A stretch of 64,000 nucleotides of DNA from Candidatus Omnitrophota bacterium (GCA_030698625.1 JAUYMS010000003.1:83471-147470), one strand, 5' to 3'; shown: positions 903 through 34,000, numbered from the stretch's first letter. The notes: generated by a model not told the origin, from the letters alone. Made by a program: numbers and translations.

Positions 903-1022
903 TTGATGCGGAAAAAGAATTTCAAAAGGGGATTTTGCATCTGGCAAAAACTAACGGCCGCCTTTGTATCGGTCTGCATGATCCTCTTGAGTGTTGTCGA
1001 ATACGTGCCGGCCGCTTATGCC
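903..1022 (+). other. N-terminal Sec-type signal peptide or signal anchor of the giant protein
   Basis: MMRKKNFKRGFCIWQK (basic n-region), LTAAFVSVCMILLSVV (h-region), then PAAYA/ST (AxA-like site), covering aa 1-40. Confidence 0.6.
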
Positions 1023-4000
1023 TCGACCGCCGCCATCTCCGCAGCCCAACCGAACTTATTTTCACTCCAACTGCCCTCAGCCCTCGGAAACGTAGAAGAG
1101 TCGTTTCGCGGACTCAGTACAAAGACAGTCATTCTCATCCAGGACGCACATGATTCTCTCGAAGCCCAAGAACATATTGCGGAACTCGTCGACCACCTGG
1201 TGGCAGAAAAGGGAATAAAAACCGTTTACGAAGAAGGTTATGAGGGAGAGGTCCCAAGCGATGAGCTTTTTGGTTTTATCGAGGACAAGGATCACCGGGA
1301 AAAGGTGTCCTACTTTTTTATGGATCGCCTAAGAATCGGCGGCGCCGAATATGCCCACATCAACCGTAAAAAAGATTTTCGTCTCATCGGTGCCGACAAT
1401 ATTGACCTGCACATCGAAAACGTATCACGGTATCAGGATCTGTCCAAGACAAAGCGGGAGACGGTTGAAGACCTTCGGGCCCTAATCGGGCAGGTGACAT
1501 CTCTGGCGCACAGGTATTTCCCCCAGCCCCTTAAGGAGTGGATGAAACTCAAGGAGCGCTTTGAAGCGGGGAAGTTGGGCCTTACCGACTATCTCAAGCG
1601 GATGATGGCGCTCAGCGACGGAGTCGAGGAATCCGAAAGCATTACGGTCGGGCCTATTATCACGCTTCTTGTGGCCGCCGAAGCCTCGGGCGACGACAAG
1701 CTCCTGGAGCAGATCCGTGATCTCGATCCCAAAGCGGTATACCGTGAAATCGCCGACCTCGAAGACCGGCTGGCCGGCATCTACGTGGAGACGGACCGCG
1801 ATCGTCATATTTTCCGCTTCTACCGGGACCTGACCCTGCTCGGACGCTTGAGCGACATCGCGGTGACTCAGACCGAGTATGGTGCTGTTCAGAAGGCCCT
1901 GGCACGATTTGATACCCAAGGGTTGGCGGAATTTATCACCAAGAATACCGGGAAGTCGGTCGTGCTTTCGCGGCAGTGGGAGCGTAATATCCGCAATGCG
2001 GTGCGCTTCTACGATGTGGCCCATGCCCGGCACAAGGCCCTGCGCCGCCGCCTTGAAGAATTTAAGTCCGATCCCGAAGAGGAGACTGCCGCGCTCGTCT
2101 TCGGAGGTTTCCACACCGAAGATATTCGTGAGATCCTCAAAGAACTGGATATATCCTTCCACGTTGTTTCACCGCGGATCACCGAGATGAGCGAGCGGCA
2201 TCAGAAATATTACAAGCGCTTGATGTCGGCCGGCTATCATGACTTTGAATTAAACGACAAGGTTCGTAGGGCGTCGCGCGCCGTGACTTACTTTGAGCTC
2301 GATGGCAGCGCCGCAATCATCGCGCGTGCTCATGATTATGTGCGGAGTGAATTGCGGGATTTGCCGCGCGAAATTTTGAATACCAATATTGAAAAGCATT
2401 TGGGCGGCGAGGCGGTCTTACAAGCGGGCGTGAAGCCGGAAGCACAGACGGACGCGGATTTGCTTGGTCCGGCGCCGGGCATCGAGAGCGTTGTCGGTTC
2501 TGAGCGCTCCGAACTTAGGCGTCTGGAGTATGGGGGGACAACGCTGTTATTCACCGCAGCGGCCGGAAGTGCGGCCGCAGGTGCGGTCCTCGCATTCCTC
2601 CTGCCGTGGATGGGGCTGAAGGCTTTGGCCGCTGCAATCGGCCTCGGGGCGGCAATCGCCTTTGCGGGCAGCGCCCGCAGCCGTATCGCCCTTGCGTCCA
2701 AAGTTCGGGCAGCCCTCGGGGAAGTCACCGTCATCGGCAAGGGTTCCTACACCAATGTCATGGGACACGAGTCCCTCACCAACAGCCTTAGGCCTGAAAG
2801 CACAAAACTCTCACGCGGTTGGGTAATCCTGCAGAAACGCGGCGCAAAAGCGCTCAAAGACCTTGAGGAATCCGTCAAAGGACCGCAGAACCGCGATGCC
2901 GAGGAAAAGGCTGTCTATCAAGCGCTGTATAAACGGGGATTGGTTCCGAAGACCGTCTATCTTGGGCTCATGCCGATACGCGACATCAAGATCAAACCCA
3001 CCGACAGAAACATGCGCGGCATTTACGACGATGCCGAAGGTCAGTTCCGTAAGGACCGGAAGGACAAGGACAGCCGGCTGCCGGATCACCGCAGCGCCGA
3101 TATTGTTCGCATTGCCATTCAGGAAGAGGGCCTGCCCCTGCATGAATATTTCAAGCTTGTCACCGCGAAAAAAGGCACGGCCATCACAGCGCTCGTAGAG
3201 TTTACCCAAAAGCTTTGGGGTGAGGGGTTCATCGACCTTGACCTGCGCATTGATAACTACATGGTGAAGCTGAAAAATGGAAAGCCCGTCACGGATGCCG
3301 ATGGCAGCCCGGTCATTCTCCTGCATGACTTCGGGGCCGTTTTTAAACTTCCGCGCTCGAGAGAAGGCATCGAGTCCTTTCTGAAAAGCACGATCAATAA
3401 GTCCGACATCTCAGCCGGATTTTTTCTCCTTAGAAATCTGATCCACGTCAACCGCAGCTTTGAGCAAGCCGGCAAAAAAACTATCAAGGTGTACAGCCCC
3501 ATCGCAGACTCCCATGAGAATGCCATTGCGAAGAAGCTTTTCCCCGGCATGAGCCTCAAGGGCATTGCCGAGATGTATGTGCTGGGCCGCAACGAGGCGA
3601 ATCACGTTTCGACGGGCTTAAAGACCTATCTGTTGGAATTCTTTCAGCGCGACGGGCGAGGAGAAGTGATCGAAGGTCATATCGAGGAACTGGCGCGTCG
3701 TATTTTCTTGGCGCTTACAGAAGCAAGCGGCGATCGTGACGACCGCACCCGCTCGGAATTAAGGGCGGCGGATGCGGGGTGGATGGCAGAGCTTGACGAC
3801 GCGTCGGCGCATCAGCTGGCCGTCGACGTGATGCGCCGCCTGGAGCACGTGAGTCCGGAGACGCCTTACGAAGCCAAGTTAGGGGCGGGCAGTGTCTTTA
3901 AAATGGGCGAACAGAATATTGCGGTCGAATACGGCACAGCCAAAACAGGCGGTTGGTTTAGTAAGGACACCGCGGTGATGCGCATTGGCGCGCTGGTTTT

Positions 4001-7000
4001 TGTTCAGCTGCAGCGCGGATCAGCGCGCTCTCTTACGGCACAGCTAAAAAAGCACATGATAAATCTGGGGGATCTCTATCAACAGAACCGAGGCAACATC
4101 ATTTTCATGCCGCCCGCCGACTACTCACGGCCTTCAGCCCAAGACCCCGTGCACATGATTACGCAGATTGCGGTTGCCGCCATGCTGGCAAGCCGTGAGT
4201 CTTTTCCGGGTGCCGTTGTCACGGATCTGGGCGCCGGAGACGGGTTGCTTTCGCAGATTGCCCTGCGGTTGGGGGCCAAGCGGGTCGTCTTAGTCGACAG
4301 GAAGTACGGACAGCTGAGGAAGGCCGAAAAACTCCTTCGAGGCCAGGGCTATGACCAATTTGAATTACTCGAAGCCGATCTGACCGATACCCGCTTTATC
4401 AAACGCATCCTGGAAGAAAATCTCGACCGGGAATCTACGATTGCGCTCGTGAATATCGGACCGCATAAGCGCCTCTACGGCGACGCGAACCGGATCGTTA
4501 TGGAGCGAATCATGCGGTGGACCGGCTTGGGGTTGATTATCAATGCGGGATACTATGGCTCCGGGTGGATCTTCCCGGAAGCCCACGACGAGGAAATTAA
4601 GTATCTCGAAGAATTGCTTCCGCACCATGGCTTTGAAACGACGGTCTATGAAGACGGTATGGGTTGGCGCCGGGCCCTGACCGCGAAGCGCGGCGCGCAA
4701 CGCTCTGAGTTAAGAGCGGAAGAAGGCAAGGCTGAATTTATCGCGCGTATGGAACAGATCTTTGCCGGCGTGAAGCAGTCGGGAAAAAAGCTCGGCACGG
4801 AAGAGTTCGCAGAGCGCATGGGTTATCCGGGGCGCTGGGTCACGGCAAGAAATCGCGCCAAGCGTCTGGGTTATCCGCCCGCGACCTTGCAGCAATACGT
4901 TGAAACCGGGGCCGGAAAGGGCAGGGCCAGGGAAACCAAACAGGAATTCGCGGCGCGCCTGGAAAAGATTTTTGAATCCGTCAGGAAGTCGGAGAAAAGA
5001 GAAAAGATCTCGCGCAAGCTTTTCATGCGCTTAACGGGTTATACGAATAAGTGGGATGCCTTACTGCAGCGCGCGCGCAAGGCCGGCTACGCGTGGGAAG
5101 CCATCAGTCCCTATGTGGAGGCAGACGAGGCCCCGTCAAAGATTGAATTCTTGAAGCGGCTCCGGGCGATTGCCGACGCGGTGAAGCGCCATAAGAGACG
5201 CGACAAGATTTCGCGTGATTTCTTCATGCGCCTCATGGGCTATCCTGAAAATTGGACTGCGCTTATTCAGCGTGCACGCACAAGCGGCGTTACCCTGGCT
5301 GACATTAGTGAATTTGTTGAGAGTGCCGAAGAAACGGGGGTCGATGACAGAGGCCGCATACGCGAAGAGCAGCTTCGCGATGCCGTCACGACGGCCAAAG
5401 AAGAATTCGGTATAACGGGTCAAAGCATGCAAACCCTGAACCGCGCAAGGCGCGCCGAGTATCTGAACCGCGTTGCCGCACTTGTCGGTTACACGAACCG
5501 AAATAACTTCCTTCACCTTACCGAAAAAATGGGCGTGAATCTCGCGGCATTCGACATTCACCGCCTGGAGCGCCTCGTTCCGTATACGCTGACCGAAAGC
5601 CGCCAGTGGTTGATTGACAATCTGCCGAAGCCGGAGGATACGGAGGGCCGAAGGAAGTGGATCAGCACGATCATGCATCTTACCGGTATGGGGATGCTCG
5701 GCAGGACGGCCGCTTATACCTTGCTGCGCGCTGTAAGCTCGGGAGAATCCGGATTCAGTGAACTCGACAAGCCGGTGGCTGAAGAACTCGAACTGGATCT
5801 CTCGACCGTCTCCTCGTCGCTGCTTGGTAAAGAGCCCGTATCCATGGACCGTTCCCCGAATCTCCTAGACTTTTTTGTCACGGCGGCCAATCGCAAACTC
5901 GAGATCGAGCGGCTCAACCCATCGGCCCGCAGCCGTCAGATTACGATGACCCCGCTGCTCGATAATCATCTCTTTCCGTATCACTTGGAGCAGATGCTCA
6001 CAACACAAAGAACGAGCACAAGGGCAGGGGTGCTGGTCGAAGAAGTGATCGGGGAGTTGGGGAGTGAACTGAATGCGGAGGAGCGTACGTTGCTGCGGGC
6101 CGTTGTGCGGGCCCGTGCCGCGGGCACGCGCTTGCGTTATCAGACACATCGAACCGTTACCGCCGCCAATGAAATCTTGTTTGGGACCCGGGAGACTCTT
6201 GGGAGTACCGGCGTGTATCACAAAGTCAAAGCTGCCGTTGAGAACAGCGAAAAGCTCCGCGCAGCATTTGAGGCTTTGCGGGGTGATCTGGATCTTTCCA
6301 CGGACCGTTTTGACCGCGGCTTTTTCGAGTGGCTTCATACCGGGGGGTATCTCCATGACGCCGAGATTCATGGCATTACGCGGCTTATGGTTTACGACAT
6401 CGAAAACGTACCGTCGCCGCATCTCTTGCCGAAACTATCGCCTGAAAACAAACAAGCCTTTGCCGTCGCCTACTTTAGAAACCATCACTTTCAGCAGATT
6501 GCCGAGAATAGCGCCGCAGTCCTCGATGACCCGGGCCTTCCGGTGCATACGCTCTCAGCCGGGTCTCTGCGGGGATGGATTCAGGGGCGCCGGCCCCGAA
6601 AGATTGTGGGCGGCATTCGCAGGCTCGAAGCCGCTCTGAAACCGGGGAGTCCGGTTCAAGAGGTGCGTGAAAGTTCTACGGAACACGAACGTGAAACAGG
6701 ACAAATACTCGCGGGCGGGGGGCACAATAAGGATCTGTTGAGTTTTATTAACGGCCTGCATATGCGAAGGGCGAAGGTTGTCGCATTCTTTAATTTGGCG
6801 ACAAGGATTTCAGAGTCGGTAACGGGTCCGAAGGCCCTTGAGCTGAAGCATGCCTATCAAACTTTGCTTCTTGGGGTACTCAAGAACCCTGAATTGGAAG
6901 TCGACTCAACGCCTGTCCATCTCATGCTCATGAGCACGATTGTTAACCACCGTCACGACGAGGCGTTTTTAAGAAAATTCTTCGAGACCTTACTCGTGGC

Positions 7001-10000
7001 GGCCCATGGCATGAGCGCGCGAGTTTCGAACAGAGAAGCGGCGAACATGTTGGCCCGGACAATTCAGGGTTCGGCTGTCTATCTTGCGGCCGGCCCCAAG
7101 GGACCGATTACGCGCGAGGGTCTGGTTCACGCCTATCAGCGATCGGCGGCGGAGAAAAAACGTTACCTCAAAGTGCAGACGGTGCGGGACGACGCGGAAT
7201 TTCGTCTCATGGGCAGCTTGGCGGTCCCGGTTGGCTTGCGCCCCGATAATGTTTACTTCTCGAAGCTCTACAATGCGGTCATTGCAAAGGTCTATGCCCC
7301 GGTCCGCGTTATCTCTGACGAAGATGCCGCCGGTCACAAGGTCCGGAACAGATCACCCAAGACGTTGCGGCATGTCCGTGAAAGCCAAAAATTTGATCTC
7401 GCAAAAATTCGCAGTGAAGCCGACGAACACCGCCGGCGCCTGCGGCAGGCAGAGCGGCTCGCCTATGACTTTTGGGGCACCCAAGGCGAGCCGGGGTATT
7501 GGCCGGAAGAGAAGGTGAAGGGCTACATATGGACCCACTACCGAAGGTGGGTTCGCGAGGTCGTGTGGGAAAACGGACGCCGCGACATGGGCAGTCACGA
7601 CGGGGTCGATATGGAGGACCTCATGGATCTCGCGCGGGATTCAGTCGCCTATGTGGGTTACACCTACAATGCGCCGGAAGAATTCACGCTCAATCTCGAC
7701 GACCCGGGCTCCCCCGAGGAGCGTCACGCAATGATCACCGGAGTTGAAGCATTGGTGCAGGAAAAGGATGCGACCCTTAAGGAATTCGAACTCATGGTTA
7801 AGGACAAAGACAAAGATGCGACGGAGCTAAAAAGAGCGGGGTTCGGTTTGAAAAAGGCGGAGCGCGCAAAGGCTTATGTGGAATCAGTGCTGACGCTGCA
7901 TCGGCATTATCTGGAAGGGGATGCCGAAAAGGCAGCTAATGTGTATTTCGACCTCGCCGAGCAGCGTGAGACGATCGAGCGGAATATTATGCGAAGTCTG
8001 TTCACGAGTTATCTCAGGCCGAGTATTTTGCATTACAAGTCACGCCGGGCGGTCAAACAGGCGTTTTTTGAATTGAAGGCCATATCTCTGGATCAGCCGC
8101 TTCCCGACGGTGACGGTGAGCTTATGGACATCGCGATCCCCGTTTTGAGATCGCGGGATGAAGAGGCGGTTATCGTTGATGACCCGAGGCTTGCCTCCTT
8201 CCGCAGCATTGCCATTAAACAGCACTTTGCACAAGTGAGGACATCAGCCTTAAGTGATACGGATCGGGATCAATACATCATGCGGCTTTATTACGGACTC
8301 GAGCCGGCGTATGCGGGTGTTGACCTGACGCAGACAGACATCGCGACTATCGTCGCCTTTCATGGCGGGGCCCTCATTACCGATGAGCGAATCCGGCAGA
8401 TTATCGCCAGGCACGACAAGGATATTTTCCGGAGAGTGGTGCACCTGGCCCAGGCGGATAACCTGAAGTCCTGGGACACCTTTATGCTTCAACTCGGAGT
8501 TAAGGAGCCTGATGACGCTCCGCCGCCGGTTGTGATTCCGATCGAAGAGAACGAGTCTAAGATCTGGCTGGGCTCACACATTTGGATTGCCACATTGGGG
8601 GATCATGCGGGCAAATATCTCTCCTTCAAGATCATCGCCTATGACCGTTACAATCCGCGCTCCGCCGATGCAGGCTACAACAACGTCGAACTGCAAAAGA
8701 GAATCTACCCTTATATGCTCGAGATTGTCGTCAGGGATCCGACAAAGCCGGAAAAGGGCAATGAAAATCTGGTCGCCGTTTTTCACGTGCATGTGATTCA
8801 TCGGCCCACCGGATCCGTACAGCAACTACCCATCATCGCGGTTCGCGGAAAGCCGCATTACTTCCTACGCGTTGATAGCGGTGCGCATGACAGTACACTT
8901 GAGCCGGCGGCCGAGAAGGTCGACCGGGATCAGGGCGAGAGGCCGGAGCCTACGGAAGTTCCCGAAGAGCCCGTTCGGGAGGCCGCGATAGAAGAGCCTG
9001 TCGACCGCTTTAAAGATTGGCACGAGTCGGCGATCCCGCATTTGCAAAGACAGCTGAAGAGCGCGCAGGCGACGTCACTGGGGCACCCCGATTTTGAGGA
9101 ACTGGCACCGGTCGGGGAACACGGAAGAATCTGGGTAGCGTATCAGAAAGGGAACGTCGAACGTAAGGCCTTCTTCCATACCGGTATTGCAGGCGAAGGT
9201 CAGGCATGGGTGGGGCGGCGGTATGATCTGAGTAAGTCTCTTTATGTCTATCGAATCGTGCGCGTCAGCGACACCGGCGAGGCCGAATCCACTCGCTACT
9301 ACAGGCTGGATCTTGACGACCATGGCCAGCCCACCGCGATGGGCTTCCGTGAATTTAAGTACGACGGCAGTGTCTGGGAAAAAGTTTCCATTCCCGGCCC
9401 GTTTTGGCTGAAACAGCGGAGTGAATTGAGATCGGCGTCAAACACCGATGATTTTGATCCCCGATTGATCGATACCTACAGCCGCCTATTTGTCGAAGGC
9501 CTCCTCAATACAGTTGAGTCGGAGGGGTATCCGGAACCTTATCAGGGTGCGGTCAAGGAAGCTCGCTCCCGTCTTAATGCCGTCGATATGCCGAGCCTTG
9601 CGGATGTTCTTCAGCCGGTTGAAGCGGCATTGAAAATTCCGGTCACGCTCGACGGTTTAAGCGGTGCGGCAGACGAAACTAAGGTTTACGAACTAGCGAG
9701 ACTCCAATATAAAGTCCGCGCCCTAAACAAGTTTCGCGTACCTATTCGGGAATTTATCAAGAATCTAATGGAGCGGGCGGAATTTGCGGCAAGGATTCAA
9801 TCGTCGACCGAGGGCCCGGTCCGGATGGGACTCATTCATTTTGAAGAGGAAGGACACAAATCGGGTCAATACAGCAACGGATTGGCAGACATTGTGATTG
9901 ACTGGATGAGCACGTGGGACGCCTCGGTCAACGCGATTGTGTTCAGAAACATACGTTTCGATTACTTCTTCAACATCGTCGGGTTGGCAAACGCACTGCA

Positions 10001-13000
10001 ATCCAAGTTTTTCCCGGATGCCCCTGATCCCGACGCCTTAGTTGTTCTCTTGCGGGAATCCTTGAGAAATGCCGTTGTGTGGGGCAACAAGAGCCGGCCG
10101 GACAATTTAGCGGCAATACGCTGGCGGTTCGAGGGAGAAGAGCTTGTCATCGATGTCATTGACCGGAACCGGGAAGAGATTGATTTCACTAAAAAACCGG
10201 AACCCCCGCGGGGCGTCAAGCCGATCTACTATAGCCCGCGTACGGATCCTGCCTCGGGCGGGTATCCGGGGGACATCAAACCCTTTATCGATCCCGCTTT
10301 CCTGACGGGTGATCGCTACGATTTTCCGATTCTCGATAAATCCGGCCGGCGTCTAGGCCAGGTCCTGCACCTGCGTTACCCCTATCCTCAACGATCCGAG
10401 TTACGGGACGAAGACGATGAAGAAGTACTGGGTTATGTGGCCGATCATGCCGACTTCGATACGACGGGATTTATCACGAGCCGGTTTTCCGGAGGTTCTA
10501 ACGTCGTCGGTTTGGGGGATCTCCACACGAATCTGGCGGTCAAGGCGCAGACGATCGATCTGATACGGTCGGGGGAAATTACGCATCTGGTTATGGAGCT
10601 GAACGGTGAGGATCTGAACAAGGCGCTCAAGAATCGGGAATCATTGCGCGAAGCGATTCGGCGTCATTTTGAAATCCTTGTCATTAATGACGAAGACATC
10701 GAGAGTTTCGTCGACGTGATCCTTGCGGCCCAGACAGCCGGCGTTGAGTTGGTCTTCCCTGATCCTCGCAAGACGAGCCGGCCGGACGATCCGGGCCAGG
10801 AGACGGTCGACATGGAAGCGGCCCTGGCAATCGGGTCTATTGTCAGATCTGATCAGGATGCGAAAGTGCTGGTTCTATTCGGAGCCGAGCATACGCGCCG
10901 CGGTCTGCGCTGGCCGCGCAAGGAAGGCCGGAGCCGCCTTACCCTGGGAGAAAATCTCAAAACCGAAGAGGGTGTGCGCTACTATTCGGTCTATCTTGAA
11001 TCGCCGGACCGCAGGGATACCTCGGATTACACCCTGGTGAGAGGCGATAAATACCGCCAGCAGGGATTCGCCCTTACAAATATGGCGTCCTTCCCGCGGC
11101 AGATGCTGGACAGGGCAGCCGATACCGACTTCTTTCGACCTGAGGAAATCGATGCCTACGTTCAACTGCCTCTCCTTAGTTACGAAGACTACCGGACACT
11201 CGTCGCTGCGGGAGAGGATCTACCCAAATTTGTTTTGCCGGAGTTTACCGAAGACTTGGCGGTCAAAAGCAGTGTCGGCGAAAATGAACCGGAGCGCCGC
11301 CGTGCCATCCGTGAAAAAGCGGCTAGGCTGGTGGCCTTGTTGAGAACACAACCGGACGCCGATTGGCCGATCGAAGAAATGGTTGAGGAGTTTAACGGGT
11401 TCCGTCTTGATGTGAGCGAGTACGCGCCGGAGATCGGAGTCATTTATCTCTGGCTCAGCCCGACCGACTCGTTCACGATATCCGTCCCTACTTATTTCGC
11501 CGTCCCCTCACAAGGGATCGTCGTTCACGCCCCGGAATTCAGCGATGACCGCTATGAGGATGAAATCATTCAACTGCCCATCGAGATCGCGAAACTCCTG
11601 AACGGTAATGAGATTGAGAAAGACTCCAGCGGAATCTTTAGCCCGGCGGGGTCTGATATCTACTGGAAGGAATGGAGACAGCGGCATGCCTATCAATACT
11701 ACCGGACCCTCGTGGGCCCCATTGGGGCGGGTGCGGTGCAGGCGATTCTAGCGCGCGAGAGCGGCAGGAAGTGGAGAGTTGTCGACTTCTTCGCCGGAGA
11801 CGGGAGCTTCTTGCGGTATTTAAGTAAACACTTAGCAACGGTGCAGCCGGACACGGATGTTGATTACGCGATGGTGGAGAAGTTCAGCGAACTCATCGAT
11901 CAAGCGCCGCGTACTTTAGCAGGCACGGCGGTCGAAATTCATCAAGCGGATATTCGACACCTGCAGGACGTTAAAGCGATTATCGGTAAGAAGCCGGTCA
12001 TCGTGACAGCCTTCGGCGGGTTGAATTCCGGAGTCGTCAAGCAGGACGACGCCGAGGCCATTGCGAAAAGAATCTACGCAGCCTTGCCGGCCGGCAGTTA
12101 TCTCGTGCTCGGCGGCTACAGCGCGATGATGGTCAATGCGAAGGAGCTCGCTGCAATGGGCTTCGAGGTGCTCAATACGGGACTGCCGCATTACATGGTG
12201 ACCGAAGACAGAGAAGCTCCCAACCAACTTTATATCCTGCGCAAGCCCTATCCGTGGTATCGCGGCGGATTGTGGCGCTCGGAGTTAAGGAGCGCTTTTG
12301 ACTACGATGCCTACAGGAAGCGTCAAGAAGCCGGTCTTGAGGTAATCCTTGAAGAGATCGATGCCCTGCGCACCGACGGCCGCTGGGAAAAGATGCCGCT
12401 TAGTGCGCGGCTCCAACTGATCGGTGAGCGGGCCGACGTGGTTCCCCTCGACTGGGGCGCTTGGCTTGAGCTCCTCGAAAAAACCGGCATGTGGTTCGGG
12501 CCTGAGCGTGAAAAGATGGAGGACCCCACCGATCAGGTCGAGGCTACGATGACGGGTGACTACCAAATACTTCAGGCGCCCAGCATGCGCCAGCCGCAGC
12601 AAGGCGAAACCTACTCGCGCTATCTGACCTCCTATGGCGCTTGTGACTGTCTTGTGTTGACCCTTTATCATCCGGGTACCAAGGTCGGCATGATTGATCA
12701 TCTGTATCTGGAGCGAAAGAAGAATCCCGCCGAGCGCATCGCCGGTGCGCTAAAGACGATGCATGAGGAGTACGGCATCGATCCGCGCGAAGTCAGGGCC
12801 GAGATTTCCGGCGGTCAGATGGACCTATCGAACTTCAAGGCCATTCAGATTCTCGAAGCGCTCGAAACGCATGAAGTGCCGATCTACTTCTTCCAGGCCC
12901 TGGACTTCCCGCTCGTTATGCTGGACGGCTATTATCCGTATGCCGAGGGTGACGGCCATGTCGCCCTGGATTTAGAAACGGGCCGCCATTACCGGCTGCA

Positions 13001-22000: not shown

Positions 22001-25000
22001 CGAACTGGGTTACCGCGATGCGAATAATGAAGCGTTACGGGGCGAGAAAGTTTCCGACTACGTTGTCCGGGGTTTGAACCGCTTGCAAAATCGCGAAACC
22101 GGGCGCACGCGCCTTGCCGATGCGTTGGGCAAAAAGCCGACCGAAATTACGCCCGATCTCCTGCAGGCCTTGACCTCGCGTGAAGAGGCGCTCATCCGGT
22201 ATAAGTTTGGTATCGGTAAATCGCGTCTCATGACTCATCTTGAGATCGCCGAGAAGTTGACGAAGGAGGGCTTCAGCTTCAACGACGGTGTTCACGTGAC
22301 AAAAACACTCTACCGCATTTTACAAAAGCTGAAGACAGCTCAGACAGGGTGGCAACTGCTCGCCGCCGATCTCGGGAAGCCGGAAGAAGAAGCGAGACGT
22401 GATTTCGAGAAAAATGCGGCAAAAATGACCCAATTGGAAACATTGGCCGTCACCCATTATTACGGTCTCGGGGTCAACCGGATCAAAGACAAAACACGCC
22501 TGGCCAAGCATCTGAGTGATCTGACTCATGAGACCATCCGAAGGAATCGCCTTTACCGTCTGCTTGCGCGAGGCCTTGCCGTGCTGCGCGGCGAAAAGAA
22601 ACGCGTCCGCGTCAAATCCGCCTACCAACCGCCGATCATTTCGGAGATCCCGGAAGAAGTGGGCGTGACTGGCGACGAACTCCTTCAAGTCATGCGCGCC
22701 GCCGCAGGCGATCAATCTCTGGCGGAGGCATTGGTGCCCGTCCGGGATGCATGGTATGCGTTGCATCCGCTCGGGCGGGAAATCCTGATCATCAACTTCG
22801 GCCTCGGAGTTACGGCCGCAAAATCGCTTCCTGAGATCTCCAAACGCCTGAAAGAAAGTCCTTACTGGGTTGAGAAAAGTGATCCGGCAAAGACAACACT
22901 CACACGCCATCGCCGGTTAGCGCTTGCAGATCTAAAACAACGCGTGAGCGGCCTTAACCGCCTTGCCGAAGACACGGGTGTTTCCGAAGAGTATCTTCCG
23001 GGAATCATTTCGCAGGGACTCGCGCTTGAGCAGAAACGTGTTCTCAAGATGACTTTCGGACTCGATACCGAACGAATCGTGCCGGATAAATTAATCGTTG
23101 ATATCTTTCGTGATGCATGGAGCGAGGAAATCAATGCCATGCGGGTGCGGACAGTGCGCAGGGACGCACTGCAGAGGATCCGCGAATTTGCCGTCAACGC
23201 GGGTTATGCCGACGAGTCGGTTCTGACGAAACGGAAAAAAGACATGTCGAAACGGACGCCGCGGCCGCCCAAATGGACGCGCGAACGAGTCGACCAACTC
23301 ATCGCCGAGTCTGCGGACGAAAAGTTGCGCGCTACGATCCTGCATCGCCAAGGCCTGGGCGGGCTTGTCAATGCGGCGTCGGGTTTCTACGGGTCGTGGC
23401 AAAAGGCTCTGGAGGCGCATCACCGCGATATTACGAAAATCAACATACGAAAAACACCGCAGCGTTCGGAACTGCGGGCAGACAGTCCGGAGTTATCGGA
23501 TTCCCGAGATGCGGAATACAAAAAGAGACTGACGGACATTCTCGAACAGCGCGCTTTGATCATGGAGTTAAGAGAGCTTGAGCCCGCGAGCGATGAAATG
23601 GTAGCGGTCATCCTGGAGCGGTTGGGAGAATACGCGGCTTCCGCGAAAGCGAGCCTGGTTGATGTCGAGGATTTTAAGTTCGTCCTGCGCCTTGTGACGA
23701 ATCCCGCTTGGAGGACGGGTAAATTTAGTGAAAAGATGAAGGCGCTTACTCACCTTTGGGGATATGTGGTGTTCACAGCTGTACGGGAACATCGCATGAA
23801 TCCGCAACTCCGAAGCTCGGTAGACCACCTGATCACAGACATGCTTGGTGCGGAGTTTGAGAATAGGGCCCCTCTCCGCAGGATTCTAATTAACACCGAG
23901 GTTGGAAGCCCGTATCACGAAAAACCCCTGCACGGTGAGGAGCAAATGCTGGGCTCCGACTTTGTGTATTTGATCAAGAGTTTGGCTAAGAATCTGAATT
24001 TATCCGGCCGTCTGGCTGAGAGGAACGACCGCCTTGTCGGGCCCATCCTGCGGGCTTTCGAGGGCCGGTATGATTTTACGCTGACCGAGGCGGAGCGGGG
24101 CAAAATTCTGCAGTTGATGGAAGGCAATGACCTCCTGGCCATTTTTGTCTCGGCGATGGACAACGGGCTCACCCGGCCGCCTTCCAGAGAAATGACGCTT
24201 GAAGACATCCGCAAGATCCGCGGGAAATTCCGCGAGGTTGTGGCGGATTCGATAGGGTCGTATCCGGTCTCCGCGAGGGACCGGATCCTCGTTCGCATCC
24301 TGCAGAAGCAGCCCGAGCTTGGCCGTGAGTTGATGGCTGAGGCTCAGGCGGCTGTGAGTTACAGCCGTAAGCCCATCGACTTTGAGGCAGCCGGGGCAAG
24401 TACTGTGAAGAGGCGAAAAGGTGTGAATGTTGCCGATACCGAAGGTTTTGGTGACTTTGCAGTAAAGCACCCCGACCTTCATGCGGTTTTGACGTCCCGT
24501 GAGAGTCTGCTCACGCTCATGCAGACGGCTGCGCTTGTCCGCGACTTCTTTCCGTATACACTCACGGCCCCCGACAAACTGCAGACCCCGGTTCAGTTTG
24601 CCATTGAATACGGAATGTATCTGCCGTTGGGGCATGGCTATTATCTGACACCGATTTCCGGCTCGTTCAAACGTCACCTGCTCTTTACGATGGATGACAA
24701 GAACCGGCCGGTCATGACGGTGCCGATCAAGATTCCCGGAAAGATCCCGGGCCGCCGGCCCGCTCTAAACGGTGATCTCGACCGCTACCGCGATGCCCGT
24801 GAAGTCTTTGGCGACGATATGGAGATTGCCGGAGCGATGGGAACCGTGGAGCCGGCGGGACTCGAGTCCGTTATGCTCTATGGCGAAGAGCGCGAAGTCA
24901 CAGAGAAGGATCATCTGCGTGTTCTGGTCTTGGAAGGGCCCGAAGCCGGGTGGCGCGTCGAATATCTGCGCCATAAAGACCTGCAGCGGATCTCAGACCA

Positions 25001-28000
25001 TTATCCCAAATACCATGGTGATGCCAGCCTCGTTGCCGACGATATTGCCAGAAGTATTCTTCGCGGCGTGGCCCAGTGGCATGCTCTGAACTATTTAGGA
25101 AAAGGCCCGGGAGAGGGATCCGGCACGGACCTTCACACCGGCAATTGGGAACTCCTCACGCCGCCGTTAAACGGAGACCCCGAGCAGGGTATCTCAGTCC
25201 GCAATATCATCGATCTTGCTTCCCTGCATCAATATGTAGAGGACCGGGCGGCGTTTGATGGGCAGCGCATGTGGGATCTCAAAACGGTCATTGATGCCAG
25301 AGATGTCCTGACGGGCCCCGGAGTCACCTTCAGTCTTTTGGCGCTGCACCTCAAGGAGAACGAACACGATTTTCTCGAAGACCCTCACGACCTCTTCGAA
25401 AAGTACACCGCGATCTATTCGGAGGAGTATGAAGCGGTCAAGCAGATAGCCAAGCGGCCGCCGCCGATGAGTTACAGGGAAATCTATACGACAATCCTCG
25501 GAGAGACGCATGAAGCACCCCTGATCATTACGGGGCTTACGGGCGCGGGAAAAACGATCTTGGCAGAAAACTATGAGAAGTATCTGCGGGAAGGGGAGGT
25601 GGAGGTGCCGGCCCACCTCGTGCATAGTGATGGTTTCTTACGGTACTCGGTAATGGCCCTGCTCATTCGCTTGCTGATCACGCTCGGCTGGATCAAAGTT
25701 GATGCGCTTACGAAGGAAGGCTTCATTCAGCGGCATTACTTCGATTTGGAGAAACGCGACCGATTCGTCGATGAAGTCAAAGCCGGAAAGTACGAAGGCA
25801 AGCAGCTCGTAATCGAAGGCATCTTCTCAGACATCCTTTTTGCGCAGGCCTTAAATGCAAAGACGCTTCTTATAGAAGCGAACAGCGCATCGGTCTATGA
25901 GGAGCGGTACGTCGACCGGTCCATGAAAGACAAAAAACGCCTCAAGCTGCCGGCCCAATTCCTGGCGCGTACGCTGATTTCAAATCGCTTAAATCAACAG
26001 CTCCTTGATTCAAGGGAGAATCATGACCTTGTCTTGAACCTTGATGACATCTTTAAGCCGAAGCTGACCGTCAACCGGCCTCCTAAAAAAGCAGAATTAC
26101 GCCGCTCGGGACTTCTTAAAGTCATAGTCGACGCTCTGACTGCCCCGGCGGGAATTCGCGAGCGTCTTACCGCCGACGGGGTGAAGTTCGGCAGCGTGCC
26201 GGAACCCTACGTATCGACATTCGACCTTGAAGGCCTGCCCTGGGTTTTTACGCAATACCGGAATGAGGACAAGGATTCTCCGTTGCTATCGCTTGATGAA
26301 CTCAAGGAACAGGCTTTGACATTGACCGGCACGCTGGAGGTGAAGTTCGACGGCGGTGCGAGAAACGCCGGGGTCTTTCTCGGCTATGTCCAAGAAGTCC
26401 CGCATCCAGTTGTTATCAAATACTTCCAGGCAGGCGTCAGCGATATGGATGCTTATGATCGGGCACTTGAACTTTATATGGCGCAAATAGTCGCGTTCAG
26501 CGGGGTCGGGCCTGAATTTTACGGGGTGCTCGTCGAGGACGGGGAGATTGTCGGGTACGCCATGCAGGCGGCCCCGGGTGCGTTCGCGACCCAGACAAGC
26601 GACCTGCTTTACCTCATGCGCTATCTGTATCAATCGGGTGACGCCGACAACAAGGCCGTGCAGCAGAACGTGATGCGAATCGAAGAGACGATGGCCCGCT
26701 ACGCCATGGTTCCCGTAGACGGGCATTTGAATGTTCTCCTTTCCCGGACCGGGCACATATCTTTGATTGATGCGGGCAATGTCCGGCCGGCTTCCGAACT
26801 TGCGGAATTTCGCATGCCCTCGTGGATGAGTTCCGAAGAAAAAGTCAAGCAGCTGTTCCAACTTATGCAGGCCTACCTGCAAAAACGACGGCCGCTAATA
26901 ACCCGTCGCGGCGCTATTCATACGTTGCTTGATCATACCCAAGCGGAGCACGCAGCACCTCTTGTATCGGTAACAACACGGGAGATGATGAAAGATGGTT
27001 TGCACGAAAGCCTGGTTAAGTACGTAAGGCAGGGAGGGCATCTGGTATTGACGACTCCAGCCTTCAAAGAAGAGGCCTTCCTGAGCGCGATCGACGGCAT
27101 CCACCGAAATTTTGCGGAGACCGGCGAAATCGAATTGCTGGGCCGCATCCACTTCATCGCAAGCGACAATAATCTTAAAGACATTTTTGTCTACGAATCC
27201 GATGCGGGCGGGTACCGGTTGTTGCCGGACGATCCGATGGAACCGGATCCCCTGCTCAAACTCGTTCGCTATCTGAACACGGCAGGCCGCAAGGTGCTGC
27301 CCTTGATGTCCTATGACTATGAGTCTGCCAGCGTACCCCGTCGTGCCTATTTCGATACTGCCCATCGCGTGTTTTCGCAAACCCCACATGCCGGCAAATA
27401 CGTTGCGATATGGGATATCGAAGAAATCACCGAGCGGCTTGCCGAACGCGCCCCCGAAGAACTCGAAAAGGGCAGGAAGGAACTACCGGCTCAGCAGGAC
27501 TTTATGGAATGGACATTCGAAAGCACCCCGTTCGAGGTGCCTGCCGGAAATCAGGTGAAGGTGATCGTCGGGGAAAAAGGACGGGGCGCACCGGGTTTCG
27601 TTTGGGCCGGTGTCAACGATTGGGAAAAGACCTATCTGATTCCGTTGGTTCAAAACCCGGCGACCGGCAGACACGAAGCCGTGCTCCCGGCCGGCACGAC
27701 CGCATTCACGTTCTATTGGCGCGATTCCCCGAAGGCCGCCGGCGAGCGATGGGAAGGCCGCGATTTTCATGTGCGCTCTGCTGAGCGCTCGGAACTACGG
27801 GCAGCCGCGGTCAATATCACGGAAACCGTATTGCCGAATGCGGGGCTCAAAGGAATGGCGTCACAGGATGCAAAGGTGCTGATCGCCGAACTGGACGGCG
27901 ATTTCCTACTGGAAAGTAAGACCTGGCCCGAAAGGAATGCGCGCACGTTTACCGCCGCCGAACGGAAGATCTTCGAAACGGGTGAGGGGCTGACGCCGTT

Positions 28001-31000
28001 TTCGGAATTCGACCTCACGCACGACGACGTTGCTTCGGTTACGCACAGCATCTATGACCGCACGAGCGGTATTATCGGCATACGGGCGGCCGTCGAGGAC
28101 AAAGCGGGAACGGTCCGCTATATCCGGTTTTCGGGCGCAGGCACGAACGAAATGGAGAAATTGAAAACTCTCATGCCACCCATTTCTGAGATGACCGCAG
28201 AGGGGACGGTCCTGCGCGTTTCGGCCGGTAATCAGGGTGACCTGGCCGGGAATTTTACCGTGCACTCACGCAAAGAACGGGGCTGGGAGTTTTTCGGGGC
28301 CAATGACGAGCCTTGGCGGGGAGCGAGATATAAGGCTTTTGTCCAATTGGAAAATGGGAAAAGGATGTTGGGCGAGGTCGAGCTTGTCGGCGAAGCTAAG
28401 GACAACCGCATTAAACAGGTCTTTATCACGCCTGTCGGCGGACGTGAACGAGTCGAGCTCGATGCGATGCAAACGCGGTCGGTCATTGTTGCCTATACGC
28501 TGGGTTGGGGCGAAACGCCGGCGGACGAGTTACTGAGGAAAAATTACGCCATGAGTTCCGATATCCGGCACCTGCTGGCCTTTCCCTTCTTCCGAGGCGG
28601 TCCGCAATTTTACAATCAGACGGTTTTGACCCGCGAGCGCTATAAAGCCGCGATGAACTTCCGGCCGTTGGATTTTGATATTGTCGACATGACCGGTAAC
28701 GCCATTCCCGTCGCAGAGCTTCTCGGCCAACTTGATAAATACGGTTATGTTGCTAAGGATACCGCTGACGAAGTCGTGAAACCGGGCGATTATTTTATTG
28801 CGGACGAAAACAACATTCGTCTTATTTTTCATCCTGCGGTTTATCCCGTCAACATTCTTGTGACGAGTCAGGACGGCGAAAAGGCGGCTTTCGTCAGCAT
28901 CCAGGGTGTTTCCGGAAATCTTGGCGCGAACTATTGGAATGTCTTTGAGTGGATTCAGGAACAGCTGCCCTGGGCCTTTGCCGCCTTTGCCCTCGACAAC
29001 GGCAAGGACCCGTCATGGCAAAGCTACAATGAGGACGGAACCGAAGCGGAGCTGCTTGTTACAGGCCGCGACCTCGTCAATGCGACCGTGCTTGTCACAA
29101 AACGTGACGGTTTTCAACGGTCAGAGTTAAGGCTCCCGGCACGGACCGCTGAGGAAATGATGACGCGCCGGGAATTTATCCCGCGGGCGGCGTTGGCGGT
29201 TGCTGCCGGTCTCGTTGTTCTTTATGAATCGCCCAATATTGTTCTTGCCGCCGACGAAGAGAAGGGAGAAGTGACACTCTTTCTCCTGAGTCACGGCACG
29301 GTTGAGGACTTCGAGACAGTAAAACCGCATGTGGAAGCGGTCATCAAGCGGCTGCTCGATGCGGGTAAGACCGTGCATTATTTTGTTGAAGCCGCCGATC
29401 TCGAAGCGGAATTATCACTGACATCCCTCATTTACGCGGCGCTTGCGCCCGATCAGTCCGCCGACTTGCGCGAGGTCTTTGGCAACCTCTATACGGAGCC
29501 GCTCCCCGAGGCCTTTCTCGAAACCTCTTTTGAGCAAGATCAGCTATTTGTGCCGCTCCTTCAGGGGGTCGAGCGAGGACTTCAATATATGAAGGATCAC
29601 AACGAGATTCCTGCCGACCGTATTGCCGATTACGAGCTGGTCCTCAAGCTTCTGCCTGTCTTGCGGAAGATCAAGGAGAAGTTCCGGGGAATCGTGCGCG
29701 GCACGGCATCGCCGGACTCCGACGACGTCACTCGCGAAGTCGCGATCGAGAGGCTTACGAAACTGTTTGATGAATTTTATGATGCGACCGACCATTCTTA
29801 TGAGCCGGATGGGTTAGCGAAGGCTCCGTTCGCGCATCGATTGCACTATGCCCTTAACCGGGATAAAGACGGAAAGCCCTGGGGATTCTGGGGCGCGCAG
29901 GAGATGTACCTTAGAGAAGGCACGTTTGCCCCGGAACTGGGAACACGACTGCTTGTTCACAGGGAACGCCTGCTTACGCCCGGCCAGCTTGATGCGTATA
30001 CGACAGCGTCGGTGCAATACTCGAAACTATTTGAAGCGCTCGGATTTCCGGGAAATCCCAAATCAGTTATCGAGATCGAAGGAAAATTTCCGGAAGCGGT
30101 TTTCTATGCGACGCAGGGTACCGCGGAGGAGAGATTGGCCCTCGTGCGCAAAGCCTACTACGAGGCCGGCGCCCGATTTGAGAGTGCCGTCATGGGTGGC
30201 CGCGACAGAGCGCTATCGCAAGAGGCGGTCCGTTTAACACCGGAGGACAAAGACGCATCGGTGATTACCCGCGGTTTGGCTCACGTGGCGGCGGGAAGGC
30301 TTCTGGCGGATAATGCCGCGACGGATGTCAGGGACATGAAGCAGATTCAGGGAAGGGCGCAGCCGGCAGTTGACGCGCCCAATACCGAAGCGGAGCTCAG
30401 AGAAATGCGCGGCGGCAATCCGGGCGACGCCATAAAATTAAAGGTTGGGCAGCATATGGTGGTCGGTTTGATCTCCGATCTCGTTCGCGAAGTCCACAAG
30501 GATCATTTGAAGGCGTATCGAGAGCGCTACGAGAACCTCGCGGCCGGAATCCCCGATACCCTTCAAGGTGAGGACCGGGAAAAGGAAATTGAAAAACAGA
30601 TGAATCAGGCCCCTTACTTCCGCGCCATGGATCCTGCACCGCTTCCGAAACGGCTTGAGAGGTTTTTTGTCGAAGACAGACGCAGTATCTGGAACGCAAT
30701 GGCGGACCACCCGGAACAAGTTGAGGAATTCCTGCTTCAGGCCTTTAGGATTCATGCGGCATACCAGCGGGTCGTTGCTGCAACGCTCCGGAAGAAAAAA
30801 GAGACGGAGCCGGAGGAGGATCCTGTGGAAATGGCGGGGAGAATCTATGCGACTTATCTGGCGATGCTGAAGCTGCGGTCTGCCTCGATCCCCACGCCGC
30901 TTGAAGCCGAAGAGCTGCCGTTCAAGTTGATCACAAAGGCCGTTGCCGACGGAGTGTATGAAGGGGATGTGAAGACTTTCCTCGATACCTTCGAAGCAGA

Positions 31001-34000
31001 AGCCGAAAAAGTCATGGATTTCAAACCTTCGCTCCTGCGCCGCGAACGCTATCGCTCCGAGCTGCGGGATGATGAGCCTGTAAAGGAGATTCCTCTTTAT
31101 ATGGCTTATGCGCGGCATTTAAACGCGGCGGACACCTTTGATTTCGCAAAGCCGTTTTTTGATGAGGCAATTCAGAAAACATCTCGCAAAGACGGCCGCC
31201 CGAACGGCATTATGATTATCGAGCATGTGGATTCCAATCTTGCTGCTATGTTCATGAACGCGATGCACCGAGTCGTTGATCCGGTGCAGTTTCCGGACTC
31301 GGTCGTGGGCGCTTGGTTCAGACAACAACTTACTATTCCCAAACAATGGACACCTTATGAAAAGATGGAATCGTTTCTCGTGCAGTACCGGCAAGATCAG
31401 CCGTTCAGGACTGAAGTGGACAACCAGTATCAGGCCTTTCTCAAACATATTGGCGTCGAGAGAATCTATGGCATCTATGACCTAAAGCAAAGGATCGGGC
31501 CGGCCTCTGTTTTACAGCATGCGGAGCTCGACTATTTTATCGAAAAGGGGATAGGTCAGGCCGCGTTGGAGCCCGCCCGCTTTGAAACGGCCGCGACGGC
31601 GTATCTTTTCGGGGAATTGGATAAGGAGATAAGGCAAGCGCTTACGCAAAGGAGATATGACGATGCGGCCAACTTGCATTTAAAGTCGATTGATTTGCTT
31701 GAGGACTCGGGCAAAGTCCGCGACAGGATAATGAATCAATTCGTAGGTGAGCTCATCCGGGAAGATCCTGAGCGTGCCATCTATCACTTTCGCGGTTTTA
31801 ATCATGAGAGAAATCACGATCTCCTTACGGGTGACGGGCAAAAGGCCGCAGGTGTCTTGGTCGGCAGCAGGCTGGGCCAGAGGCCTGTCTTTTCGACAAC
31901 CACCTTTCAAGCCATGGACGGCGCAGAAAAAAACCTTCTCCTCATACATTTTATGAATGAGGTCCTGGATCATTTACTTCATGAAGAGAAACTCAGCTCG
32001 CATCGCAGCATCCAGGAATTCCTGGCTTTTCACCTGAGTCTGACACAGGGGCTTGAGCGGGAATTTAAAAGCCTGGAACAACCTGAAGACTACGATGCTT
32101 GGTTTAGGGAAATCTTTGATGCCGCAAACGAAACAGTACAAAGGAAGAGCCTGTCCCTGGGTCTCGCGCTGCTTGAAGTTTTGGAAGAAAGAAATATCCT
32201 GTCTCGTTCCGAGCTCAGGACCGAAGGCGGCGATAAAGAAAAGCCTCGCGGGCAAATTACGCGAAGGACGTTTTTGGATTGGATGGTGAAAGCCGCCAAT
32301 GCGGCCGCGGCGGCATCGGGGGTTTCGCCCGGGGCATTGCTCGAGGCCGCCGTCTCCATCCCCGCCGAGAAACCAGACTTGTCGCTGGCGGCGTTGGCCC
32401 GGCGATTTGCCCATAATCCCGATTCCCTGAAGGAACTCGAACAGGGTGTTGCTTGGCTTCAGGCATTCACTATCCTATACGGAACTGACAAGAAAGAGGA
32501 AGACTATGAGCTGGGCTTGATAAACCTGAAGCTCGCCGTACTGGACGGCGTGCGCACACGCAAAGAAAGTGAAGGCGTGACCGCGCTTTCCGAAGAGGAA
32601 GCCGCTTCACGGCTTGAGACGGCCCTGAATTCGCTGGAATCCATTGCCCAGTCCGAGGGCCTGAAAAAGGCCCCGCATCTCTTGGAGCGTCTGCGGAGCC
32701 TGATGGCCGAACCGTTCAGCTTCAAAGCTGCGCTGTCTGCACGAACGGCTCTGATACGGCACGCCTGGGGCACCGTACTTGGACCCCGCAGCGAGCTGTC
32801 GAGGGTCGCCAAAGACGTTGCCGAATGGTATGGCCGCGATCTCCGGGCCGCGCAAGCCGTAATGGCGGAGATCGCCGAACAGCTCACGCCGGAAGGATTC
32901 CGAAAAATACGGCAGCGGGAATTGATCTTCGAAAGGAATATGGACAACTACTTTGATCGTTCACTCCTCCCTGAGATTGCGCGCGGCGAGGCCGAGATCG
33001 ATTGGAGCAACCTTTTGGAAGACGACTACCGCGCTCGCATGTCGCGGTTTAAGGATCTGGCCGGTCAGTTGCCGGCAGCGGTGCGCAAGCAGGTGTTTGC
33101 CAATCCTAAAGTGCGGGAGGCTGAACGCAGTTACCGGCAATGGCAGCGCGAAAGCTGGAAACGAAAGGAGGAGCGGGAAACCTCCGCCGATCCCGAATCG
33201 CTCAAGATGATCATCGTCGGCGGCAGGTTCGACGACGAAGGCGGCAGGCCGTCATCATTAGTCAATCAGATTCATGCCGCACTGCCCGCGGGCACGAAGC
33301 GCGTCAACGGCGGCCGCTTTGACGCAATTCCGGGCCTCGCAAAGACCCTCGCCGATTATGACGTGATCATCTGGTTTCCCGATATTCCCAATGACAAGGC
33401 GAAATACCGGAATCTGAAAGCGCGGTATCCCGACAAATTGCTGGTGACCTCGAAGCGCAACCACGAAGGCAGTTATAGCGACCTCGAAGTCGTCGATCAC
33501 GCGCTCAAACTCAAAAGCAATCTCGTCATCGAATTTTCGGATACGATTCCGTTTAATATGAGGCTGCTGGATCCCTTGGGAAATGTCTACGAAGATACTC
33601 AGGACGCGTCATCGCTCGCCAAGTCGATGACAAGGCGCCTCAAGGTGATCGCGAAGGTGCGTCGGCAGGGGACAAAACGCGTCGCGGTCGCCTCACCGGT
33701 CAAGGTACCGGATGAGCCCGAGTTTTTCGATATTATCCGCGATCAAGCCGCGCGATTTCACGAGATCATGAGTGAACGTCGGCCGGAGACGGAAGAAAAC
33801 GAGGAGTTTTGCTTCCGTTGCGAAAGGGGATTCCCGAGTATGCGCGAGGGCGATTTCGCGTTCGTCTCGAAGCGGGGTGCCGCAAACACGGAGCGGCATT
33901 TTACGCGCAAAGATATGGTTCCCGTGGATTTGGCGAGTTTCCGCGAGACGGGCGAAATTAATTTCTACGGCCCCAACAAACCGGCGGTGGATACGCCGGT

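Follow-up and report, generated by a model that had tools for sequence, protein, structure and literature searches.

Flavivirus-type polyproteins are made as one chain in which a short basic protease site on the cytoplasmic side is closely followed by an internal signal sequence that directs the next product across the membrane; protease sites beside internal signals are familiar from viruses. Bacterial multi-effector toxins are also processed between modules; in the MARTX toxins, a built-in cysteine protease cuts between effector domains at a loose X-Leu-X site. Here we analyse a 64,000-nucleotide stretch of Candidatus Omnitrophota DNA (GCA_030698625.1, JAUYMS010000003.1:83471-147470; hereafter the window), in which one giant open reading frame (ORF) contains 16 exact copies of the pentapeptide RSELR. 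Three of these copies are closely followed by sequences resembling a membrane anchor or signals for twin-arginine translocation (Tat), and the chain itself begins with a signal of the general secretory (Sec) type.

It is an open question if Omnitrophota giant proteins work as uncut chains or are divided into many products. Missing information on cleavage points has blocked analysis of their products, and cleavage has been suspected (West-Roberts et al. 2023, 10.1101/2023.11.21.568195). In a 2026 study, internal signal-peptide calls in such proteins were discarded as chunking artefacts (10.64898/2026.06.07.730766). The separator that we describe gives the first concrete candidate cut sites.

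Results

An exact pentapeptide recurs along a giant ORF

The single ORF lies at 903..37655 on the plus strand and has 12,250 codons counted from a TTG at 903; an ATG at 906, with AGGA 8 nt before it, is the likely start. The separator copies leave segments of 54 to 1,920 aa. The ORF and the copies are as follows.

906..37655, + strand, giant ORF, 16 RSELR copies giving 17 segments
2343..2357, + strand, RSELR copy 1, exact match
2505..2519, + strand, RSELR copy 2, 54 aa after copy 1, precedes hairpin (i)
3750..3764, + strand, RSELR copy 3, exact match
4701..4715, + strand, RSELR copy 4, exact match
9417..9431, + strand, RSELR copy 5, exact match
10392..10406, + strand, RSELR copy 6, exact match
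12276..12290, + strand, RSELR copy 7, exact match
13035..13049, + strand, RSELR copy 8, exact match
18795..18809, + strand, RSELR copy 9, exact match
21273..21287, + strand, RSELR copy 10, exact match
23463..23477, + strand, RSELR copy 11, exact match
27786..27800, + strand, RSELR copy 12, exact match
29118..29132, + strand, RSELR copy 13, precedes signal (ii)
31053..31067, + strand, RSELR copy 14, exact match
32205..32219, + strand, RSELR copy 15, precedes (iii)
37050..37064, + strand, RSELR copy 16, exact match

Amino-acid composition predicts 0.035 copies in this translation. The motif is confined to the frame of the giant ORF (16 of 16 copies, with none in the other frames of the 64 kb) and it is strict: every one of the 16 matches to R-x-E-[LIV]-R in the window protein is exactly RSELR, with zero variants. 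The near-misses.SELR, R.ELR and RSE.R are absent, RSEL. occurs twice (RSELG, RSELS) and RS.LR once (RSILR). The codons differ among the copies, with Ser written as both AGT and TCN and Arg and Leu drawn from both of their codon families, and the flanking residues are not conserved; selection therefore acts on the bare pentapeptide at the protein level. In copy number, varied codons and unconserved flanks the motif resembles a short protease site and is unlike a domain or a DNA element.

Two other explanations of the motif were set aside. A DNA-level origin is ruled out by the codon variation, specifically the two kinds of Ser codon. A role for the Ser as a phosphorylation site or nucleophile was rejected as unlikely because relatives have Ala, Asn, Asp or Pro at that position. 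Some inter-motif pieces are short spacers, such as the 54-aa segment 2 (2358-2519). A full-text literature search for RSELR returned only unrelated matches, such as the software varSelRF, and we found no description of the motif in the literature on polyproteins and giant proteins.

Export and membrane signals follow the separator

The initial annotation held that three segments begin, shortly after RSELR copies, in the way independent exported or membrane proteins do. The three sequences are indeed where it placed them, and their placement is non-random; its spacings of 8 aa for (ii) and 12 aa for (iii) also stand, and hairpin (i) begins 6 aa after its copy instead of the 7 first given.

906..1022, + strand, segment 1 N-terminal Sec-type signal: MRKKNFKRG, hydrophobic core, PAAYA|S; relative P0002 (below) begins alike
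2538..2675, + strand, (i) two-helix hydrophobic hairpin, aa 546-591, start of segment 3
29157..29252, + strand, (ii) twin-arginine signal, start of segment 14: TRREFI, h-region AALAVAAGLVVLY, c-region IVLA|AD
32256..32351, + strand, (iii) Tat-like sequence, start of segment 16: TRRTFL, then AANAAAAASGVSPGALL

Hairpin (i) reads TTLLFTAAAGSAAAGAVLAFLLPW-MGLK-ALAAAIGLGAAIAFAGSA, and basic residues (SARSR...K.R) come after its second helix; together these fit a membrane anchor with both ends inside (N-in/C-in). Signal (ii), MMTRREFIPRAALAVAAGLVVLYESPNIVLAA, occupies aa 9419-9450, with its twin-arginine (RR) site 11 aa after copy 13. Sequence (iii), ITRRTFLDWMVKAANAAAAASGVSPGALLEAA, occupies aa 10452-10483, with its RR site 14 aa after copy 15.

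The pattern [ST]RRxF[LIVM] has exactly two matches in the 12,250 aa, (ii) and (iii), where shuffled sequences give a mean of 0.074 (P(>=2) = 0.002). With the looser, TatP-type pattern RR.[FGAVML][LITMVF], 14 sites are found in the giant protein, and an uncharged run of 13 aa or more comes next at only (ii) and (iii); the 20-aa stretches behind the RSELR copies make up just 2.6% of the protein. In (ii) the uncharged h-region is 13 residues long, averages 2.41 on the Kyte-Doolittle hydropathy scale and runs into V-L-A|A; in (iii) the uncharged run is 17 residues long and averages 1.10, and the small-x-small site is indistinct.

As a Tat test, (ii), given as an N-terminus, and (iii) were compared with curated hidden Markov models of Tat signals (NCBIfam TIGR01409 TAT_signal_seq, cutoff 16.7 bits; Pfam). 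Signal (ii) scored 17.0 bits on TIGR01409 and also weakly matched the Pfam Rieske Tat-signal model, and in a scan of the whole giant protein TIGR01409 matched only aa 9421-9440. The earlier claim that both sequences fit the consensus S/T-R-R-x-F-L/I holds for the consensus itself, and the profile accepts (ii) but not (iii). We rate (ii) as a good Tat signal and (iii) as only Tat-like. No homologues of (iii) were found.

Strongly hydrophobic stretches are few in the 12,250 aa, a handful in all, and the N-terminus, (i) and (ii) are three of them. When the window ORF is pooled with two related polyprotein ORFs described below, there are 17 internal hydrophobic stretches, of which 6 begin no more than 20 aa past a motif copy (binomial P = 7e-5), and in all three polyproteins the hydrophobic and RR signals cluster in the 0-15 aa behind the motif. 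The combination of a separator with signals behind it is clearly non-random.

Embedded relatives of segment 14 keep the separator and the signal

When aa 9380-10500 were searched with HMMER against 1.84 billion representative proteins, four relatives came to light (P0001-P0004). They represent two other Omnitrophota-type polyprotein ORFs (P0002 and the ORF at locus L086), one fragment (P0001) and one stand-alone gene (P0003). The fragment is a partial Candidatus Omnitrophica protein that reads RNELR, 9 aa, TRRDFI, h-region and VVA|AESETGK. P0002 (4,466 aa) is encoded on a 96-kb contig. At its N-terminus are a Sec-type signal of its own and a module that is homologous to segment 1 of the window protein, and R-[S/A/D]-E-[L/I/V]-R is found in it 20 times where 0.5 copies are expected. 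Its segment-14 module is preceded by RSEVR, 14 aa and SRRDFLKLAGAG, a textbook Tat consensus, and at a second site RSEVR and 14 aa lead to RRRVLWIFGGIAAVGSAG. P0004 is part of the L086 ORF (1-10038), which is open from the contig end and has at least 3,346 aa and 10 motif copies. Three of these 10 are followed within 0-7 aa by an anchor-like or lipoprotein-like hydrophobic stretch, and one of the three, RSEVR-DETTRREWLLTVGFFGAGAIGICGAGGC at aa 2122-2160 with its RR plus lipobox-like signal, stands before a homologue of window segment 15. Window segment 15 itself (31068-32219) has no signal, unlike this homologue; signals are therefore gained and lost from one module to the next.

The relaxed motif R-[S/A/N/D/P]-E-[L/I/V]-R occurs 20 times in P0002 and 10 times in the L086 ORF, against 0.5-0.6 in shuffles; a control set of 10,623 aa, made up of the window's remaining ORFs of 150 aa or more at 37656-64000, has 2 matches. 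In P0002 some copies are clustered, two or three together at 15-40 aa spacing (residues 1421-1460, 2696-2760, 3367-3391 and 4086-4130), and a spacer ending ...(T/M)FAVQGSQ(E/K)PA-R(S/A)EVR occurs three times. Homology blocks among the ORFs start and stop at motif copies, and the order of the modules differs between ORFs.

P0003 (L087 257-2305) is a free-standing gene of 682 aa behind an AT-rich non-coding upstream region rich in stop codons. It matches segment 14 (645 aa) and P0002 residues 2761-3366 end to end, in an alignment that extends from the RR region as far as its C-terminus. It thus corresponds to exactly one inter-motif segment, and its C-terminus falls at the position of the next motif copy in both polyproteins. 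The initial annotation would have been undermined by stand-alone homologues without the RR region; P0003 keeps TRRQAIKAITAGTATVLF...VLLA|QDKETGK and reaches 18.5 bits on TIGR01409, with the caveat that its RR pair is about 70 aa from the called start. As in known polyproteins, then, a site recurs at module boundaries and a module is equivalent to an independent protein.

P0001 and P0002 also exceed the TIGR01409 cutoff (18.4 and 19.7 bits), and the consensus region reads TRRDFI, SRRDFLK or TRRQAIK in the homologues. A four-way alignment of the window with P0001-P0003 shows no change in the RR pair and brings the (V/L)-x-A sites into one column, with weakly hydrophobic, Gly/Thr/Ala-rich h-regions in P0002 and P0003. 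In the embedded homologues a copy of R-x-E-[LIV]-R lies 9-15 aa upstream of the RR signal. The sequence around (ii) is only 25-38% identical among the three embedded copies, which come from lineages with DNA of 47-56% G+C, and still the RR pair, h-region and c-region are kept. Four residues of the mature part, His, Asp, His and Glu, are invariant in the family, which suggests a metal site and could suit a folded passenger.

Segments 14 and 15 are distantly related via P0004. A suspected resemblance of segments 1 (903-2357), 14 (29133-31067) and 15 to the TIKI/TraB/ChaN/erythromycin-esterase superfamily found no support in family profiles or fold. Other searches added little. A word-indexed protein search returned nothing for segment 14, its alignment or its conserved block, which is uninformative as that collection contains two of the relatives. 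With 4,725 aa of the giant protein as query no relative was found in GTDB genomes, JGI metagenomes gave a single marginal 26% match, and IMG/VR gave none. Among 80 loci compared for nuoN synteny, none has a giant or motif-rich ORF beside nuoN.

A candidate protease within the chain

13140..13502, + strand, M48-like zinc metallopeptidase motif (Pfam PF01435), N-terminus of segment 9, after RSELR copy 8

This region is a candidate for a built-in protease, nothing more, identified by its HEVLH (13344-13358) followed by NEYDAD. It had no PDB match, and an AlphaFold2 model was of low confidence (predicted local distance difference test, pLDDT, 40).

Genomic setting and composition

Recognizable domains in the giant protein are sparse and mixed: S-adenosylmethionine (SAM) methyltransferases, an ABC1/UbiB-type kinase, GNAT, a class II aldolase and the M48-like zinc-peptidase motif. 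Pfam and NCBIfam scans gave no RTX repeats or CPD domain among its domain matches. Directly upstream, ORF 161-703 encodes an SseB N-terminal domain (PF07179, E = 1e-16), and the other genes of the window have ordinary housekeeping roles (nuoL/M/N, F-type ATP synthase, NusA, IF2, PNPase, dUTPase). The closest matches of the nuoN protein are in Candidatus Omnitrophota metagenome-assembled genomes, the best at 64% identity, and sequencing run SRR13727534 includes a contig whose atpD is identical to that of the window. Within the 64 kb there is no linked secretion or injection system.

The giant protein is also poor in Cys, with 10 in 12,250 aa (0.08%) against 85 in 7,792 aa (1.09%) in other window genes, a 13-fold depletion that spans the whole protein, enzyme-like parts included. 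All 10 Cys are paired, two in the signal peptide and the rest as CDC, CC, CFRC and CPC. The polyprotein relatives are likewise Cys-poor (0.02% and 0.11%), whereas the stand-alone homologue P0003 is not (0.88%).

Discussion

We favour, with a little better than even confidence, the view that the giant protein is a polyprotein cut at RSELR whose products are targeted separately by Sec, Tat or membrane anchoring; the cleavage itself, its position, the protease and the use of Tat are all inferred. In this polyprotein model, a sequence-specific endopeptidase would cut the product of the giant ORF at or beside each RSELR (R-x-E-[L/I/V]-R in relatives), probably directly after the last Arg. We place the cut there because the next residue is mostly Ala, Ser, Thr or Asp, and because the signals then have n-regions of normal length, 0-15 aa. 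About 17 gene-sized products would be released, each following the address at its own new N-terminus: segment 1 would use its Sec signal, segment 3 would be anchored in the membrane through the two-helix hairpin at its N-terminus while its globular part stays cytoplasmic, and segment 14 would be exported by Tat in the folded state, segment 16 probably likewise. The other segments, with methyltransferase, ABC1/UbiB-type kinase, GNAT and P-loop domains, would remain cytoplasmic.

Our strongest argument for this model is topological. Along the chain there is an N-in/C-out Sec signal, the hairpin, 8,800 aa that contain ATP-, SAM- and acetyl-CoA-dependent domains, an N-in/C-out RR signal and, 1,000 aa further on, a second RR signal; between (ii) and (iii) the maximum 19-aa Kyte-Doolittle mean is 1.12, which leaves no hydrophobic stretch there. 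A Sec signal, a hairpin and then two export-type signals in succession, without a reverse helix to separate these two, therefore could not all be usable in an uncut chain. If an uncut chain did use them all, cofactor-dependent enzymes would be placed outside the cell and the positive-inside rule would be broken. As encoded, (ii) and (iii) are 9,420 and 10,453 residues into the ORF, so the N-terminal location of a Tat signal would be theirs only after a cut at the RSELR before each. Support for the interpretation is partial, strong for (i) and (ii) and weaker for (iii), with cleavage inferred throughout.

Several observations weigh against this model. The case for cutting is drawn indirectly from sequence, the protease is a candidate, and conservation is judged from few sequences, the four relatives. 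The M48-like region scores 22.2 bits on PF01435 against a cutoff of 20.3, which is marginal, its NCBIfam HtpX match is weak, and P0002 is without HExxH, with no M48-like motif detected there. The composition around RSELR is only weakly and inconsistently linker-like. Sequence (iii) does not match TIGR01409, its one match, to a formate-dehydrogenase Tat model, is far below threshold, and the class II aldolase and SAM methyltransferase domains behind it in segment 16 are typical cytoplasmic enzymes and odd Tat passengers. P0003 as called has a Sec-like hydrophobic stretch at residues 6-27, with the RR pair at about residue 71 and so not at the extreme N-terminus, and its second Met, at residue 38, is without a clear ribosome-binding site. 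Searches by tblastn with E. coli TatA and TatC found neither in the 64-kb window or the other loci retrieved, which is uninformative. Finally, dual Sec-Tat membrane proteins show that internal Tat signals can function uncleaved after Sec-inserted helices (Tooke et al. 2017, PMC5449189), and the initial annotation overstated its case in holding that a buried signal makes sense only with a free N-terminus.

The uncleaved use of internal Tat signals supports the proposal that the chain is never cut. The product would then be a giant multi-pass membrane protein with the hairpin and RR stretches as internal signals, and RSELR would be a flexible linker or a docking or recognition motif, perhaps for a chaperone, scaffold or regulator. 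Such a chain would agree with the published view of Omnitrophota giant proteins as single membrane-anchored chains (10.64898/2026.06.07.730766), and the protease that cutting demands is at candidate level. We nevertheless judge it unlikely: the order of Sec signal, hairpin, (ii) and (iii) without a reverse helix gives an impossible or rule-breaking topology, the roughly 8,800 aa from hairpin to (ii) are unlike the known dual Sec-Tat proteins, one segment matches the free-standing gene P0003, and 16 copies that are all exactly RSELR are stricter than a linker requires. Former genes may instead have been fused in frame, with surviving Sec, Tat and transmembrane sequences as unused relics and RSELR in some other role. 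Modules do match free-standing genes, the segment 15 module is found with or without a signal, and (iii) is weak as a signal, all as this would predict. An unused signal should decay, however, and the RR pair, h-region and c-region of (ii) have been kept amid considerable divergence; the enrichment of signals right after the motif in all three ORFs also speaks against relics, which we think rather improbable.

Free N-termini could also arise by internal translation initiation downstream of the motif in place of proteolysis, a source that the initial annotation had allowed. At (ii) there is a GAGG 5 nt before an ATG at 29160 (M9420; region 29146-29162), which would give MTRREFI..., but this Met is not conserved in homologues, there is no in-frame start with a Shine-Dalgarno (SD) sequence at (i), and the sole candidate at (iii) follows the RR pair. 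Of the 16 copies, 5 have an SD sequence and a start behind them, where random positions give 2.5 (P = 0.09), and internal initiation would leave an invariant pentapeptide unexplained; we find it scarcely credible. The remaining alternative concerns where the addresses are read. Omnitrophota have been proposed to live as predators or parasites, with target cells as the suggested site of action of their giant proteins (PMC10066038; 10.1101/2023.11.21.568195), so the chain or its pieces might be delivered into prey or host, cut there or beforehand, and sorted by the victim's machinery. A Sec signal at the start of the chain and the Cys depletion that the giant protein shares with its polyprotein relatives but not with the stand-alone homologue would suit such a route. 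With no secretion or injection system linked in the window, and with P0003, which has the same Tat signal, most simply read as an ordinary Tat substrate of its own cell, we consider it quite improbable. The fuller version, in which a nearly Cys-free effector polyprotein exits its producer, is cut at RSELR and has its pieces spread over prey compartments by the prey's Tat, Sec and membrane machinery, would be a very long shot.

The polyprotein model makes the question of products concrete. An exact, countable separator leads to concrete predicted products, on the basis of the conserved R-x-E-[LIV]-R, the module boundaries and the Sec, Tat and anchor addresses after copies. If the giant protein is cleaved, the polyprotein expression of viruses would have a counterpart in a cellular, chromosomal gene and an undescribed site-specific bacterial protease would be implied, and internal signal-peptide calls in giant proteins should then not be dismissed as artefacts.

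The window protein belongs with the Omnitrophota giants, being a 12,250-aa ORF in an Omnitrophota genome (by its nuoN matches and the annotation of P0001). Like their 'multi-enzyme' class (10.64898/2026.06.07.730766), it exceeds 10,000 aa, starts with a signal peptide and has few domains, with a mix of methyltransferase, kinase and acetyltransferase. It differs in its defined, exact repeated separator with post-separator signals, and it has none of the C39/S8 peptidase, dockerin or SecA-like domains described there, nor the many transmembrane helices. The twin-arginine signal away from the encoded N-terminus is shared with the dual Sec-Tat membrane proteins (PMC5449189). In those, however, the RR signal closely follows Sec-inserted helices and precedes one C-terminal cofactor domain, whereas in the window it comes 8,800 aa past the last helix and a second RR signal follows with no helix between, which places the window protein outside that group. 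Compared with ordinary Tat signal peptides (TIGR01409, PF10518), (ii) and three homologues score above the TIGR01409 cutoff, but (ii) is encoded 9,420 residues from the N-terminus.

With flavivirus-type polyproteins the window protein would share the packing of many proteins into one chain and a basic site closely preceding an internal signal. Unlike them, its gene is cellular and chromosomal, flanked by ATP synthase, NADH dehydrogenase and NusA/IF2 genes, its motif is different, one of its signals is twin-arginine and its protease is a candidate. Like the MARTX toxins, it is a very large bacterial protein of unrelated enzyme modules with defined inter-module sites, at which we suppose cleavage to occur, but its site is an exact pentapeptide, its modules carry bacterial export signals and it has no RTX or CPD match. 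What we file as new is thus a putative chromosomal bacterial multi-enzyme polyprotein that has an exact pentapeptide separator and mixed Sec, Tat and anchor addresses.

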